A program made the translations under genes and the position numbers. A DNA stretch of 63,076 bases, filler included, from Collodictyon triciliatum (lineage: Eukaryota), in the NCBI GenBank assembly GCA_043381765.1. It is 19 parts of 19 records of this genome, joined end to end, with 100 filler letters (N's around TTAATTAATTAA, not from the genome) between each part and the next. Parts side by side here need not be neighbours in the genome. Positions count along the whole stretch, not along the records: positions 8,186 to 11,329 come from JBHJMP010007735.1; 18 more parts are not named here. One strand, written 5' to 3'. Of the stretch, positions 3,279 through 38,722 are shown piece by piece (positions within the stretch are counted from its first letter, which is position 1; each line of letters begins with the position of its first letter). The notes under the pieces were generated by a model that was not told where the DNA came from, searched no databases, and saw only the letters and a list, made by a program, of their open reading frames with translations.

Positions 3279-3991
3279 NNNNNNNNNNNNNNNNNNNNNN
3301 NNNNNNNNNNNNNNNNNNNNNNNNNNNNNNNNNNNNNNNNNNNNNNNNNNNNNNNNNNNNNNNNNNNNNNNNNNNNNNNNNNNNNNNNNNNNNNNNNNNN
3401 NNNNNNNNNNNNNNNNNNNNNNNNNNNNNNNNNNNNNNNNNNNNNNNNNNNNNNNNNNNNNNNNNNNNNNNNNNNNNNNNNNNNNNNNNNNNNNNNNNNN
3501 NNNNNNNNNNNNNNNNNNNNNNNNNNNNNNNNNNNNNNNNNNNNNNNNNNNNNNNNNNNNNNNNNNNNNNNNNNNNNNNNNNNNNNNNNNNNNNNNNNNN
3601 NNNNNNNNNNNNNNNNNNNNNNNNNNNNNNNNNNNNNNNNNNNNNNNNNNNNNNNNNNNNNNNNNNNNNNNNNNNNNNNNNNNNNNNNNNNNNNNNNNNN
3701 NNNNNNNNNNNNNNNNNNNNNNNNNNNNNNNNNNNNNNNNNNNNNNNNNNNNNNNNNNNNNNNNNNNNNNNNNNNNNNNNNNNNNNNNNNNNNNNNNNNN
3801 NNNNNNNNNNNNNNNNNNNNNNNNNNNNNNNNNNNNNNNNNNNNNNNNNNNNNNNNNNNNNNNNNNNNNNNNNNNNNNNNNNNNNNNNNNNNNNNNNNNN
3901 NNNNNNNNNNNNNNNNNNNNNNNNNNNNNNNNNNNNNNNNNNNNNNNNNNNNNNNNNNNNNNNNNNNNNNNNNNNNNNNNTTACGAGCAAT

Positions 3992-8085: not shown

Positions 8086-8278
8086 NNNNNNNNNNNNNNN
8101 NNNNNNNNNNNNNNNNNNNNNNNNNNNNNTTAATTAATTAANNNNNNNNNNNNNNNNNNNNNNNNNNNNNNNNNNNNNNNNNNNNTTAGTACATGCAAAA
8201 AAAAAAAAATCGAATAATAATAATAATCGAATAATGATAATAATCGAATAATAATCGAATAATAATCGAATAATAATC

Positions 8279-8358
<80 letters not shown>

Positions 8359-8379: not shown

Positions 8380-8660
8380 TGAGAGTCATAAAAAAATGAC
8401 TCCGAGTTTGTGCAATGGACAGAAGTGTTGCCAAATACTAAGTGAGCTTCTTGGGTGAGATAGCCAGTTTTCCACAATTGGTATCATTCAAAGGCCAACA
8501 TCGCGATTAAGTTTTATTGGTTTTACTATAAGGTATAATAATCTTTCGATCGGTAAACCTAGTGCACTAGTATCCAAGGTATAACCACTTTTTTCACAAA
8601 GATTGTGTAGTGGTGAAGGCTGCCAGGAAAGACCCGACAGCCTGTTTTTTTAAAGGAAGG
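8380..8660 (-). ncRNA. Candidate Fanzor omegaRNA scaffold (boundaries uncertain)
   Basis: Cluster of hairpins just 3' of the RuvC-III motif (8617-8643, 8584-8614, 8519-8559, 8383-8402). G-U pairs and a GAAA tetraloop form on the Fanzor sense strand. Fanzor/TnpB guide RNAs are known to overlap the ORF 3' end. Confidence 0.45.
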
Positions 8661-10527
8661 TGTATGCATATTTGGAAGGATTAAAACAACTTTCTTGAGT
8701 ATATTTTTAGCGCTGTTAAAGTCCCTTATCAAGAATAAACTTTGTTTGCTTTCTGACCGATTGCATTCTATACATATGAGACATATATACACCTTTTTTG
8801 AGTTTCATTTCAGTCTCATATATTCCAGTTCTTTTCGCAGTTACAGCACATCCTGGAGGTTCTAAGTTCATCGGCACTACCTGTTTCCAAAACGTTTGGA
8901 TAGTGTTTTTCGTAATCCTCTTCCGATTATTGGCATAAAATGTTTCATCGGGCATTTTCTTCTCCAGTCTCCTTACCTCAGTACAACATCCTTGCCAAAT
9001 GTCTTTTCGATTCGGTCCATAAACAACTCTTCACTTTTTTTTTGTATTAACATACTGTCTCCATCTCATCTTTCGAAAAGTAACGTGTTCATAAAATCTG
9101 GATAGTTCTATCTGGTATCTTTACTTCATAGATACATATTCCCGAAATTTTTCATAATCGACTGCGCATGAATTATGTTTATTCAGTTCTGTCTCTAAAT
9201 CAATTAAAGATACTCTTGATGTCTCAAACTGCTGATTCTCTTCAAAAGTCATTTGACCAAAAGAAAAAGCACTTTGTAATTCTGCTGCCATGTATACCCC
9301 TGAAGCATTGTACTTTTCTTTTTTCTGGTGCAAGAGCATTTCGTGATTTTTAAGAGATTTGCTATCATGTCTTCTTTGGTGTGCCGTGTAACATAATTTC
9401 TTACCTTTCCCATCCGCCATGTAAACAAAATTAAACTTGCCTGCATCCATCCCAACTATATTTTATTTTGTCGCTAATAAAGATAACCGCTCTTCGGAAA
9501 GTTTATCTGTATAAACATGTTCTTTGGTTTTTTATATTTGGATTCTGAATTTGAAATACCTTTCTTTTCAAACAATAATGACACCGCCAAGCCTTCTGTT
9601 TGTATCGTGTATTTAAAATTGTAGTCTCTTTGATGAAAGACCCTCTTCTTCATTTAAAAGACATTATTCCATACTTTCTCTTTGCATCCTGACATATTCT
9701 TCATTAATGATGTTTTTTCCAGTTGATACTAATAGCTATCAAACATGCAGTATCTAGAGTAATATGACACGGTATATTGTTAGTTTTTATAGGGATTGGT
9801 TGTAGTAGTTTGGTTCCAATGTCCTCAAAAATGCGATTCATGTAAATCAGACATGGTATGTACTTATTTGGATTGACTTTGGCGTCATATTCGATGCCTT
9901 TTACAAATATCGCTGGGAATGATATGATTCAAATGTGTTGTAGCCAATCCTTTGTATTGTTCCAATATTTCGAGTTTCTTGAAGATGGATTTTTTTAACT
10001 TTCGTGACTCTGCCTTTTTAATAGCTTCCGTCATATTCACATCTTTAGGGACTGTTTGATTTATAAAGCGCAATAACCTCTTTACAAAATGTTCCTTGAT
10101 GTTGTTATGATAAGCTGTTAGCATTTGCTTTGCCAAGTACGGTAATGCAAGAGATACTCCAACCAATCGGAAAGCGTTATACTCGGGACAAAAGGAATCG
10201 AAAATCATAGAGATAAAAAGTCATCATGTCTTTACTTATCTCTGGTATTTTTTTAATCTTGCAGGTCTATCTTGTGAAACTATTCTGGCGGTCTTCAAAG
10301 TATAGAAAAAAACATTAATTGATTGTTGGGACTTTTGATTTCAGTATGTAACATCTTGCAAACAGATAAGTGTCAGTAACCAAATTATGACACAATAAAA
10401 TCGTATCGTTGATTTCGTCATAGTCATCTGCATTCTTAACAATCGACTTTAGAGATGTTTTCTCATTTCGGTAGTCTTGTTTTATAGACTTTAGATTCTC
10501 AAACTCAAGACGTTTTCTTTTTTTCAT
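8559..10527 (-). pseudogene. Fanzor1-type (eukaryotic TnpB-derived) RNA-guided nuclease, disrupted by stops and frameshifts
   Basis: Stitched frames give KTSLKSIVKN...LPYLAKQMLTAYHNNIKEHFVKRLLRFIN...YDAKVNP...IPCHITLDT...FKYTIQTEGLAVSLLF...NIVGMDAG (RuvC-I D at 9445-9447)...FRKMRWRQY...V(L)R*GDW...MKHFMP...DELRTSRMCCNC (RuvC-II E at 8867-8869, Zn finger)...CLICIEC...RDFNSAKNI (RuvC-III D at 8721-8723). Confidence 0.9.
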
Positions 10528-11429
10528 CTGAAAGTCTTTGTTTTACTTTTTCCTATAGGAAACCACCGAGTTTTCAGTTTTAATAAAACTATAGTCAATC
10601 AGTCAATTTAATAAAAACAACTAAAACTGCATAAAATCGATTCAGGTAAAATTAAGCATCTCGAGACTCTCAAAATGTGCGCATTGTGGCAAACAAACAC
10701 ACAAAGTTTTTATAAGTGATTTGAGACAAAACGCTGAGAGCTGATTCGGCGAGTTCGAAAGGACGGCCGCATAGCCATCGCGACTGAAATTCAACATATC
10801 AGCCTCAAACAACATGATTATCGCCCTAAGTGTGGATAGTATACTTCTTTGAAATGCGTGTTTGGTGGCAGATTTATAGGGTGGGTTCTTGTTTGGGCCA
10901 AGGCAAGGGCTTCTTTGTAATTTTTGGCTTTAAATGACTATATTGCATAAATGGAAAATAAAACATAGGCTGATTATAGGAATAGAATGAGATTATCAAG
11001 TATTTTTAACTTTATTATATATATATACTAATTATACTATTATATTATTCAGGTTGTTTCTTGGGTTTATCAAAGCTCCTGCTTTTGTCAATCAAGATTT
11101 AATTCGATGGTTGTCTGTGCAATAAACTGTTATATAGATGAGTATACTTTCGTTGTATAAAAAGTGTTGTGCCTTGAAAGGAATAAAACCAAATTCGTCA
11201 CAACCATTGTAATGAAGTTTATCCATTTACAGGCGGAATAAGACCAAAGGAAAGAAAAAAGAAAAAAGAAAAAAAGAAAAAAAGAAAAAAAGAAAAAAAG
11301 AAAAAAAGAAAAAAAGAAAAAAAGAAAAANNNNNNNNNNNNNNNNNNNNNNNNNNNNNNNNNNNNNNNNNNNNTTAATTAATTAANNNNNNNNNNNNNNN
11401 NNNNNNNNNNNNNNNNNNNNNNNNNNNNN

Positions 11430-27604: not shown

Positions 27605-27990
27605 GCACACTGGAAGAATGATTCAGCATTCTGTTTTTTTTCGCCTATGGATCGTCTCACTTTCTGGCTGATCGGAAAACATGTAGCGGCTTCCTTTCCA
27701 CATGTCGTCCTCGGTTTCCTCTCTGCTTCTGTGATCGATGGGCGGTTGCGCCAAAGGCCTTTCTGCCAACAAAAATAAAAGGAAAGGCTCAATAGGTTTA
27801 ACACGAGCGATCGGAGCTTGGCCAAACAGAATGTGAGGCAGGAGACAAAGCCAAAGTGTGCGCCACTGCAGGGCCGTGTTTTTTGACTTTCGACAAAAGA
27901 TCGTGGTTGCGCGGGTTGTTTGCTGCTTTGAAGAAGATTGGCGGAGCGACTATGCAAGATCGCTGGCTTTGATGTAAGTGCAAAAAAAGG
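27605..27990 (-). repeat. tRNA-Gly-associated dispersed repeat, copy 1 (truncated by contig end)
   Basis: Its reverse complement matches 38359-38722, with about 8 substitutions and one 22-nt indel by manual comparison. Confidence 0.9.
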
Positions 27991-28061
27991 TGCATTGTCC
28001 GGGAATCGAACCCGGGTCGACAGCTTGGAAGGCTATCATGCTGCCACTACACCAACAATGC
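27991..28061 (-). tRNA. tRNA-Gly(TCC), copy 1
   Basis: Exact reverse complement of 38288-38358, followed by a T7 Pol III terminator. Confidence 0.95.
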
Positions 28062-29048
28062 TTCTTGATTGCCACCCATTAATAATATATATAATTATTA
28101 GCTCATTTCTTTACTGTGCTTTCCCTAATTGGTAATTCTGGCACCAGACCCGAAGAAAACATGGGATATCCAAACTGGAAGATAGTCCTAATTAGGTCAG
28201 GACAATGGGCTCACCAGAAAATTATTTCCTATTATGGACATACTCGCCACGACCCGAATTGAGGGCATTCTGTTGGCAGAAACTGGATTGGTTTGGATAA
28301 GCCGCCTGCGGCCGAGGCCGTGGCTTGAAAAAGGATGACGCACGTTGCTTGTGGGAAGAAAAATGAGTGGTTTGTGACAAAAAAAAAATTGTAAGTCCTT
28401 GGGTGGGGCAAGAAAGAAAAACTGAGTGTTGCAACTTCGATCTGAAATTTTACTGGGAATGAAATTCAGTTGGCTTTTCCCACATATAAATAAAGGGAAT
28501 CAAACGGCAATAGCGATAGTTTTTTTTGCAGCATAAAGCGCGCAAGCCCATTACAGTGTGCTGCTTCTGCTATGCCGCGATGTTGTGATATGAACCAAAG
28601 CTTCATAGCCTCGCGAGGGAAACCAATAGCCCCACACCCAGAGCAAAAGTACTCGGAATCACCTGTGACTTTTCATCCTTTTTTTTTTTTTTTTTTTGCG
28701 GGGGTAATGACTGTGCATGGCCTGTGAGTGTCGGAAGTGGTCACACCGCAATGATTTTGACTATGTCACGAGACAGATTGAGTGTCCTTCCTTTCCACGC
28801 AAAGAAAGCATTTTAGTTGGAAGATAGTAGTCGAAAAAACTCACAGCATGCTGTGGGTCATTGTGCTCTAAACCAACGGATGATATGAATGATGGTGGAT
28901 AGAATGAAGTATCGAAATATTGGATGATGACAACCCCCTATTTTCCAATAAATATTAGAACTCTTTTTTTTCCTCACCACGTCATGCCAGTTAGACAAAA
29001 AAAAAAACTAGAAGGATCCGCATCTGAAGTTGGGCCAAAGGAATTGTC

Positions 29049-37097: not shown

Positions 37098-38287
37098 GTT
37101 AAACTTTTCCCTCTCCTGACAGAACCTATAAAATATGTGCCCAGACAATATGATGAATAAAACAACCCGCCAACATCTTCACCATCCTGCACAAAATTGA
37201 AAGGAAGAATAAAAAAANNNNNNNNNNNNNNNNNNNNNNNNNNNNNNNNNNNNNNNNNNNNTTAATTAATTAANNNNNNNNNNNNNNNNNNNNNNNNNNN
37301 NNNNNNNNNNNNNNNNNAATATTACCCCATTGGTTTGTTTTCTTTGCCGATTAAAAAAGTTTAATTTCTTTTTATTTTTTTTCTTTTCCCCCCCCCCCCC
37401 CCCATTTCGATCGGTTATATGAATGAAAAATACTATACAAATCAATCAAACTTACTCTACCAATCCATAGCTCTCTCCTTCATTTATTTTCTGCTTCCAC
37501 TATGATATTGTTTTTTTAAACAACTGTATATTTTACCTTTACATTTTTCTGGTCTACAGTATTCAAATGTGAAATCAAAAATACCCTGCCAGGTATGACC
37601 AGACAAAAAAATGCCAGGAAAGCCCACCCCCAGAGTGGGAGGATTTGACAATTCAGGACACGAAAAGAAACACGCGTTCCCTGGCATGCAGTCTCCTGTG
37701 AACAAGTCTTTCGTAGAATCTCCTTTTTTTCTTGTCAATCGAGAAGCAAAAAGTGCTTTGAAGAAACTGCAGGAAGGAAGATTACCTGCTTGATTGCAGA
37801 GCATTCTATTTTCGTTCCATTAATTCTCTATCATATAACCGTAAAGTGCATTTGTACGCACCAATTTTTAAAACATTATCTCCCTTATGCTCCTTCACTT
37901 TCCTTATTTTGAACTTTCCTAAATAAAATATCGCATAAAATGCTGGTGAGATGAACCCTTCATGCGAGAGAGCACAACTGAAACGGATTCACACTAGTAT
38001 CTTAATGGTCGAATTATTTTTCAACTAAAAAAAAATAAATCAATAATAATAATAAGTTGGGCACCATCCTAGCGCAACACTAAATGAGAGTTACAAAGTT
38101 GCGGAGGTTCTGCTGCGGTAACCTGTGCCCCCTAATATTTGCTCCGCCCATGATATCACGAATACTGGCATCCTCGCTGGTAATCGCTTCATTAGTTACT
38201 AGGGAGAGAAAAAGACAGGGAAAATCAGAAGCAATAATTGTATTTTTATTGAATCTTATACATATAAATCTTCCACTATCACAAGGA

Positions 38288-38358
38288 GCATTGTTGGTGT
38301 AGTGGCAGCATGATAGCCTTCCAAGCTGTCGACCCGGGTTCGATTCCCGGACAATGCA
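38288..38358 (+). tRNA. tRNA-Gly(TCC), copy 2
   Basis: 71-nt cloverleaf: GCATTGT/ACAATGC acceptor stem, ATAGC-CTTCCAA-GCTGT anticodon arm, CCGGG-TTCGATT-CCCGG T arm. A TTTT run lies 6 nt downstream. Confidence 0.95.
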
Positions 38359-38722
38359 TCTAATTTTGCACTTGCAACAAAGCCAGCGATCTTCTTCAAA
38401 GCAGCAAACAATCCGCGCAACCACGATCTTTTGTCGAAAGTCAAAAAACACGGCCCTGCAGTGGCGCACACTTTGGCTTTGTCTCCTGCCTCACACTCTG
38501 TTTGGCCAAGCTCCGATCGCTCGTGTTAAACCTATTGAGCCTTTCCTTTTATTTTTGGTGGCAGAAAGGCCTTTGGCGCAACCGCCGATCGAACACAGAA
38601 GCAGAGAGGAAACCGAGGACGATATGTGGAAAGGAAGCCGCTACATGTTTTCCGATCAGCCAGAAAGTGAGACGATCCATAGGCGAAAAAAAACAGAATG
38701 CTGAATCATTCTTCCAGTGTGC
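38359..38722 (+). repeat. tRNA-Gly-associated dispersed repeat, copy 2
   Basis: Matches the reverse complement of 27605-27990. The true 3' end is unknown because copy 1 is cut by its contig end. Confidence 0.9.

Follow-up and report, generated by a model that had tools for sequence, protein, structure and literature searches.

A decayed Fanzor1 copy from a multi-copy repeat family in a stretch of Collodictyon triciliatum DNA

In a stretch of 63,076 nucleotides (nt) from the genome assembly of Collodictyon triciliatum (GCA_043381765.1), which as a whole is called the window below, we identified on the minus strand, between positions 10527 and 8559, the remains of a gene for Fanzor1, the eukaryotic, transposon-borne, RNA-guided DNA endonuclease derived from TnpB. 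With a probability that we put at about 0.93, this locus is a decayed Fanzor1 copy in a multi-copy repeat family of a eukaryote with DNA also present in freshwater metagenomes. It should be noted that Fanzor1 has already been catalogued widely in eukaryotes and viruses, according to the accounts in PMC10432273 and PMC10530073; the window copy adds a dead member to a family that is well known and is, in this sense, an ordinary relic.

Homology to Fanzor1

The minus strand from 10527 to 8559 can be read colinearly as one protein of ~640 codons, the stop-to-stop fragments of which lie in alternating frames over 10542-8559. Three read-throughs served as queries: a frame-2 read-through with stops written as X (P0001; 554 residues, roughly 310 of them in the correct frame), a frame-0 read-through carrying RuvC-I (P0002), and a frame-1 read-through (P0003). 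An exhaustive HMMER search of P0001 against a library of 1.84 billion representative proteins returned 337 matches at E<=1e-3, 69 at E<=1e-10 and 3 at E<=1e-30, the best full-length match being P0004, a protein of 634 residues (E 3.5e-50). Searched against the PDB in its turn, P0004 matches SpuFz1 (9.2e-37, over residues 14-607), PpFz1 (7.2e-34) and GtFz1 (7e-16), these three being its only matches at E<=1. An alignment of 40 full-length relatives (A1), which we used as the family profile, yields the same three proteins with E-values of 5.1e-93, 1.6e-93 and 1.7e-70, respectively, followed by LaTranC (2e-3), whose chains (0.002) are the only non-Fanzor1 matches of the profile in the PDB at E<=0.01. 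By full-length similarity to characterised Fanzor1 proteins, the window protein thus belongs to Fanzor1 rather than to Fanzor2 or TnpB, in agreement with the identity proposed in an earlier, sequence-only reading of this DNA.

The individual window frames, compared directly to all PDB chains, reach the same family at marginal E-values. P0001 has only two matches at E<=10, GtFz1 of Guillardia theta (PDB 9CER; E 0.038) and SpuFz1 of Spizellomyces punctatus (PDB 8GKH; Saito et al. 2023, PMC10432273), the latter at a marginal E of 0.25, and the top match of P0003 is again GtFz1 (E 0.079), on residues 629-690 of the fusion chain, which directly follow the residues 534-621 matched by P0001. GtFz1 is accordingly the best direct PDB match for two window frames, and a distant one: each of the two matches is marginal, and its score with the A1 profile is below those of SpuFz1 and PpFz1. 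The part of the locus that matches GtFz1 residues 534-621 also matches SpuFz1 residues 520-573; it is the REC-region fragment of Table 1, which is 78% identical to P0005, a protein fragment of 137 residues.

The tblastn matches of relatives to the window are colinear and alternate in frame. A reading of the locus in which the breaks are replaced by X matches P0004 and the protein of the giant-virus locus L001 in blastp with an E-value of about 1e-138 (38.5-38.8% identity, 413 bits), and the next full-length protein after this viral clade scores 287 bits.

The active site

A frameshift-aware alignment, one of the checks suggested in the sequence-only reading, was run between P0004 and the minus strand 10560-8540. 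Residues 1-616 of P0004 align colinearly over 10524-8614, with 596 codons aligned and 253 of them identical, and the six stops that had been named from the sequence are recovered in the alignment. Of the 40 positions at which 90% or more of A1 agrees, the window keeps 36; the four exceptions are D319 (E in the window), P373 (A), E399 (D) and R601 (T). At the invariant positions D372, E530 and D581 the window has D, E and D, in codons starting at 9447, 8869 and 8723, so that the three catalytic acidic residues are, as had been claimed, all retained.

These three residues of P0004 align to D777, E935 and D1000 of the MBP fusion chain 8gkh_P; with the fusion offset of 394, they correspond to D383, E541 and D606 of native SpuFz1 (numbers from PMC10432273), which in the account of that paper coordinate two Mg ions. 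The catalytic triad of the window is thus equated with that of SpuFz1 by sequence through one intermediate, and not by structure. A failure of the D-E-D residues to align, or of the repaired protein to give a significant profile or structure match, had been named as grounds for abandoning the Fanzor interpretation; the residues do align to the SpuFz1 active site at the level of sequence, and the family profile matches Fanzor1 significantly.

The motifs IVGMDAG, QTEG, GDW, DELRTS-CCNC, CIEC and RDFNSAKNI were all found on the minus strand in the places given for them in the earlier reading. In the PDB search, QTEG aligns to TTDG of SpuFz1 (P0001 domain 2) and GDW to the GDW of SpuFz1 (P0001 domain 3), such that SpuFz1 and the window share the GDW, TDG-like and DE.TS..C motifs. 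The zinc finger starts with CCNC at 8848-8837, directly after DELRTS, and ends with CLICIEC at 8774-8763. Both the window and A1 show the rearranged site, with G(D/N)W at the canonical RuvC-II position and DE.TS adjoining the zinc finger. PMC11832414 and PMC10530073 describe a rearranged RuvC site with a relocated glutamate in Fanzor and in the TnpB proteins ancestral to it, and PMC11832414 presents the relocated glutamate as a mark of Fanzor and of the TnpB2 ancestors.

The RuvC and zinc-finger core is shared with TnpB (IS200/IS605, e.g., ISDra2) and with Fanzor2. However, the canonical glutamate position of TnpB is a glycine (in GDW) in the window, the active glutamate being relocated, and the large helical N-terminal half of the window protein is Fanzor1-like, unlike TnpB and Fanzor2. 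Read across the frameshifts, the locus also conforms to the TnpB/Fanzor motif D-X(125,275)-[TS][TS]-X-X-C4-X(5,50)-RD given in PMC3627910: the aspartate at 9447 lies ~196 codons before TS (8860-8855), which is followed by two residues, CxxC, CxxC and then, after 12 residues, RD (8726-8721).

One part of the window protein has no equivalent in P0004 or in the other full-length relatives compared, namely, an in-frame insertion of ~34 codons located after the RuvC-I strand (Table 1). Length differences that match this insertion are seen in the matches to P0006, P0007, P0009, P0011 and P0012. The insertion is also carried by P0032, which derives from another copy of the family, and no GT..AG joint was seen there among the contig joints listed. 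P0006, a 378-residue relative of the C-terminal half of Fanzor1, bears in one source the name "6-pyruvoyl-tetrahydropterin synthase", which is probably a mis-annotation.

Stops and frameshifts in the window copy

A straight reading of the locus contains eight in-frame stops and seven or eight frameshifts. The stops are TAA at 10315-10317, TAG at 10267-10269, TAA at 10177-10179, TAA at 9654-9656, TAA at 9463-9465, TAA at 9121-9123, TAA at 8973-8975 and TGA at 8805-8807; all six of those listed in the sequence-only reading are confirmed, and the list has to be extended by TAG 10267 and TAA 10177, both of which fall in the poorly conserved N-terminal part. The frameshift sites are near 10172-10179, 9906-9916, 9716-9731, 9513-9540, 9038, 8887 and 8831, with a possible eighth at the A-run 8645-8651; if this run does hold a further frameshift, the pseudogene would end at a TGA near 8597 instead of the TAG at 8559. 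The alignment path to P0004 has ten frame changes, of which the one at 8645 is uncertain, while the two at 10299 and 10247 probably arise only because the path avoids TAG 10267. The pieces occupy eight frame segments. The earlier proposal that the fragments join into one protein of ~600-650 residues therefore holds for colinearity and for length (~640 codons), and has to be corrected in the number of segments, which had been given as five.

There is no open reading frame (ORF) for a full Fanzor1 protein in the window copy, and the frameshift near 8831 together with TGA 8805 splits its zinc finger. The window copy is clearly dead and cannot make the protein. Three metagenome contigs, from other sequencing runs in three studies, are identical to the window across several lesions, with 0 differences over 8695-8932 (run X1), 8727-8877 (X2) and 9663-9888 (X3); therefore, the breaks are not assembly errors, unless one of these runs is the source of the window itself. 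With eight stops and seven or eight frameshifts, and with lesions reproduced in independent contigs, the window copy is a pseudogene member of its family and not a working one.

Conversely, if the gene were intact and functional, the breaks would have to be introns, reassigned codons of an alternative code, programmed frameshifts or sequencing errors. We consider this very improbable. Three of the frameshifts do lie at short homopolymers, which are prone to indel errors (A-runs at 9038 and 8831, GG at 8887), and some Fanzor genes are reported in PMC10530073 to carry introns. However, the colinear protein alignment leaves no space for introns at the breaks, and there is no GT..AG among the 12 joints listed. 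An alternative code is at odds with the neighbouring ORFs, which are long and clean under the standard code (for example, 353 residues at 22847-23908). Sequencing errors, in turn, are at odds with the exact reproduction of the lesions in the contigs of the three other runs, and the stops arise by substitution, with sense codons present in other copies at several of them.

A repeat family with many diverged copies

In a search of public sequencing runs with words sampled from the window, no run was found to contain more than a tenth of the words (shares at most 0.10); the runs that contain them are mostly freshwater and lake metagenomes, plus run X8 of a single organism, and no RNA run was among those listed. 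Contigs were placed on the window at a likeness of at least 80%, and the counts per site given below are those of the best-supported entries, beyond which there are another 495 substitutions and 89 indels. X8 contributes 353 contigs on the stretch, 17 of them at >=99% identity, 67 at 95-99%, 145 at 90-95% and 124 below 90%, with a summed depth of 100-450 over 8558-10750. Because of this number of contigs, the spread of their identities and the summed depth, the element is a repeat with many diverged copies.

The copies differ from the window at its lesions. The stop at 8973 is a sense codon in all covering contigs (9 of X8, 2 of X2 and 1 of X3), that at 9122 in 12 X8, 1 X1, 4 X2 and 3 X3 contigs, that at 8807 in 16 X8 contigs (the X1 and X2 contigs there have the window's letter), and that at 10317 in the one X8 contig that covers it. 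Apart from the exactly matching contigs, every contig that covers 8973, 9122 or 8807 has a sense codon there. Indels that restore the frame are present at 9038 in 11 X8, 2 X2 and 2 X3 contigs, at 8887 in 3 X8 contigs and at 8831 in 6 X8 contigs. Protein fragments from the library point in the same direction: P0005 (78-83% identical) reads through where the window is broken at 10177, ~10175 and ~9911, and P0008 (291 residues) reads through those at 9911, 9730, 9654, 9524 and 9463. Many lesions are thus private to the window copy. Together with the presence of the element in many copies in X8, this supports the suggestion that the lineage hosts a Fanzor1 family.

Other members recovered from the library are decayed as well. 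P0028, P0032, P0039 and P0065 stem from ORFs called on further decayed copies, each being partly in the right and partly in the wrong frame, and every close fragment is the sole member of its protein cluster. Neither a fully intact close copy nor a full-length relative above about 40% identity was found among the 1.84 billion proteins. Within the window, tblastn and blastn detected no second copy, and scans with the window fragments and P0008 found no locus in the JGI metagenome contigs or in IMG/VR. An intact copy of the window's family is plausible.

Relatives on giant-virus contigs

The closest intact full-length proteins found, P0004 and its like at 38.5-38.8% identity over the whole length, are encoded at loci L001-L004, which lie on giant-virus contigs 57-254 kb long, among them a GVMAG contig of 254 kb; the genes there contain 0 stops; a fifth locus, L005, has an intact gene as well and is more distant. 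In L001, the Fanzor gene stands beside a gene for a DDE_3 transposase of 346 residues (Pfam 1.3e-13), with a ribonucleotide-reductase-like gene nearby; such a Tc1/mariner-Fanzor1 arrangement is a class described by Bao & Jurka 2013 (PMC3627910). Homology between L001 and L003 spans the upstream part and ends ~50 nt after the Fanzor stop codon. A small basic ORF of 69 residues with no Pfam family lies between the DDE_3 transposase and Fanzor1 (L001 9740-9949, plus strand), and has counterparts in L003 and even in the distant L005.

These viral proteins resemble the window protein in their length (632-634 residues), in their basic N-terminus and in having all of the motifs, and the repeat in the window ends at a similarly short distance past the ORF as do the viral elements past the stop codon. 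Conversely, the viral elements are intact, with the DDE_3 transposase and the 69-residue ORF upstream, whereas there is no trace of either in the window. The window copy, for its part, is broken in at least 15 places, carries the 34-codon insertion, lies in a cellular genome and is one of many copies.

A quick maximum-likelihood tree of 46 rows (short search, unrooted, with the P0004-guided reading of the window) joins the window with P0008 (SH-aLRT 99) and places the two in a set of seven rows with the giant-virus clade and P0070 (SH-aLRT 97). From this position, and from the location of the nearest intact full-length relatives in Tc1/mariner-type elements with DDE_3 on giant-virus contigs, it could be argued that the window copy is an integrated giant-virus remnant, or was delivered by a virus, rather than being part of a resident transposon family of the host; a spread of Fanzor by viruses was proposed earlier, in PMC3627910. 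We regard such an origin as improbable. The window protein shares no more than about 38% of its residues with the viral clade, the flanks are ordinary eukaryotic genes and microsatellites with no viral genes among them, no close relative of the window fragments was found in IMG/VR, and many diverged copies occur in the run of one organism (X8).

Element ends and a candidate guide RNA

Repeat coverage by X8 contigs collapses left of about 8541-8557, ~20-35 nt past TAG 8559. On the other side, it continues past the ATG as far as 10750 or further, short of the element's 5' end, which may lie in or beyond the N runs at 11330-11429. Within the upstream non-coding part (10528-10750), we found no ORF with a Pfam family and no inverted repeat that pairs with the 3' end. 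Several X8 contigs skip ~98-100 nt in this part, with joints from 10562/10563 to 10662 and from 10615 to 10716; the upstream non-coding part varies in length among the copies, and no tandem repeat accounts for the variation at 10562-10716.

The RNA fold of 8470-8650 has a z-score of -3.18, with 1 of 200 shuffles being as stable, and includes a hairpin of 11 bp (8643-8616). In Fanzor1 and TnpB, the guide RNA lies at the 3' end of the element; PMC10432273 demonstrates this for SpuFz1 and GtFz1. Because the fold and the end of the coverage fall where these guide RNAs lie, we suggest 8526-8650 as a candidate remnant of a guide-RNA scaffold. No Rfam family matches the fold at the 3' end. For comparison, the Spu-1 elements have clear inverted repeats of 30 nt and a demonstrated guide-RNA scaffold of 75 nt, whereas the scaffold in the window is only a candidate.

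Observations that weigh against the Fanzor1 interpretation

Several results count against the interpretation of the locus as a Fanzor1 relic and have to be set beside the evidence given above. Pfam searches with nine fragments and the three read-throughs gave nothing relevant. No fragment or read-through of the window matches PF07282 (Cas12f1-like TNB / OrfB zinc ribbon; cut-off 26.3 bits), and of 10 intact relatives P0009 alone clears the cut-off, at 28.8 bits, whereas 6 score lower and 3 lack a match. The sole PDB match of P0002, the read-through with RuvC-I, is formate dehydrogenase (E 1.1), with no Fanzor. Next to the active site, invariant or near-invariant residues are altered, DPG to DAG and TDG to TEG. 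The alignment and the reading with X at the breaks were guided by P0004, which slightly favours P0004 in blastp and in the tree. With regard to the element as a whole, a comparison of the 3' end with 10500-11329 for inverted repeats gave a score of 23, which does not exceed that of shuffles (mean 20.4, sd 2.8), a search of the window for transposase remnants found none, and the guide RNA is a candidate.

If the likeness to Fanzor/TnpB motifs had arisen by chance in AT-rich non-coding DNA, the absence of a Pfam match on any fragment would be expected, and so would the outcome of comparing the RuvC-I fragment to longer proteins in a word-based search, in which none of 56 candidates scored. A PDB search with the C-terminal fragment of 81 residues alone gave no match. 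Chance is, however, of negligible probability in view of the E-value of 3.5e-50 among 1.84 billion proteins and of a colinear match over 616 residues in which 36 of 40 conserved positions are kept. Since PF07282 is weak even in intact relatives of this clade, Pfam is blind to a broken copy; the domain is, moreover, divided by frameshifts in the window.

Features of the locus and the rest of the window

The features of the locus are collected in Table 1.

Table 1. Features of the Fanzor1 locus in the window, in window coordinates
Feature	Position	Strand	Basis
Fanzor1 pseudogene	8559..10527	-	ATG 10527 (N-terminus MKKRKR) to TAG 8559
Eight in-frame stops	8805..10317	-	Read-throughs and frameshift-aware alignment
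Seven frameshift sites	8831..10179	-	Frame changes between colinear tblastn matches, and alignment path
REC-region fragment, helical, with conserved LPYLAKQMLTAYHNNIKEHF block	9885..10220	-	PDB and P0005 matches
QTEG, counterpart of the near-invariant TDG of the family	9591..9602	-	T318/D319/G320 of A1 align to T/E/G
RuvC-I catalytic Asp codon within IVGMDAG	9445..9447	-	Column of invariant D372 of A1
In-frame insertion, ~34 codons	9211..9312	-	Gap in P0004 alignment
GDW at canonical RuvC-II position, where Fanzor lacks Glu	8964..8972	-	G496 and W498 of A1 kept
Relocated RuvC-II catalytic Glu codon within DELRTS	8867..8869	-	Column of invariant E530 of A1
C4 zinc finger, CxxC...CxxC	8763..8848	-	Direct reading; C564 and C567 of A1 kept
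RuvC-III RDFNSAKNI, catalytic Asp codon 8723-8721	8700..8726	-	R580/D581/N583/N587 of A1 kept
Upstream non-coding part of the repeat	10528..10750	-	X8 contig coverage at summed depth 54-136 over 10533-10750
Candidate guide-RNA (omega/fRNA) scaffold remnant at gene 3' end	8526..8650	-	Fold and position

The window is AT-rich, microsatellite-rich and eukaryotic in character, its source being an intron-bearing eukaryote, and the exons of the genes nearby are long and clean when read in the standard code; the flanking ORFs have no Pfam family. The relatives of an aminoacyl-tRNA synthetase ORF in a protein atlas are a mix of eukaryotes and bacteria and do not point to a host taxon. The locus is bracketed by microsatellites, (AAT) x45 at 8213-8357 downstream and (AAAGAAAA) x10 at 11251-11329 upstream, and the tandem repeats found in the window are microsatellites only. 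Elsewhere, 27605-28067 is duplicated in inverted orientation at 38282-38722 (463 nt, 92.7% identity), each arm containing a tRNA-Gly(TCC) gene (27991-28061 on the minus and 38288-38358 on the plus strand) and ~390 nt of shared flank. Over 4843-59948, runs of 44 Ns come in pairs separated by 12 bases, with one such pair roughly every 3237 bases (e.g., 8086-8129/8142-8185 and 11330-11373/11386-11429); this regular spacing looks like masking rather than biology. There are also two long N runs, at 1079-1875 and 3279-3980.

Discussion

By analogy with characterised members of the family, an intact copy would encode a protein of ~640 residues that binds a guide RNA produced from the element's 3' end, recognises a short motif beside the target and cuts double-strand DNA. 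The cutting RuvC site would be formed by the aspartate of IVGMDAG, the relocated glutamate of DELRTS by the zinc finger, and the aspartate of RDFNS. RNA-guided cutting of this kind would, by analogy with TnpB, help the element to persist. SpuFz1, which belongs to the same family, resembles the window element in being a single ORF of ~2 kb and in being multi-copy, 42 loci, 19 of them full-length, being reported for S. punctatus in PMC10432273.

A more extended hypothesis is that the family is still alive in its host, as a high-copy Fanzor1 without a transposase of its own and sister to the giant-virus mariner-Fanzor1, that it records a virus-to-host transfer followed by amplification in the host, and that at least one intact copy exists with the 34-residue insertion, then specific to the lineage, in the RuvC region. 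We put this forward tentatively, and on balance rather doubt it. If it is true, the intact copy would add an orthologue to Fanzor1, with a guide RNA and a target motif of its own. Practical value hinges on such a copy, which the window locus cannot supply.

For annotation, the finding accounts for a 2-kb stretch without a called gene, and explains the short database "proteins" P0028, P0032, P0039 and P0065 as ORF calls made on decayed copies. For the family, the known range of Fanzor1 gains one eukaryotic lineage and one sub-clade, about 38% identical to its nearest intact relatives, and a cellular repeat family is linked to the giant-virus Tc1/mariner-Fanzor1 clade, in keeping with the earlier idea that viruses spread Fanzor genes.

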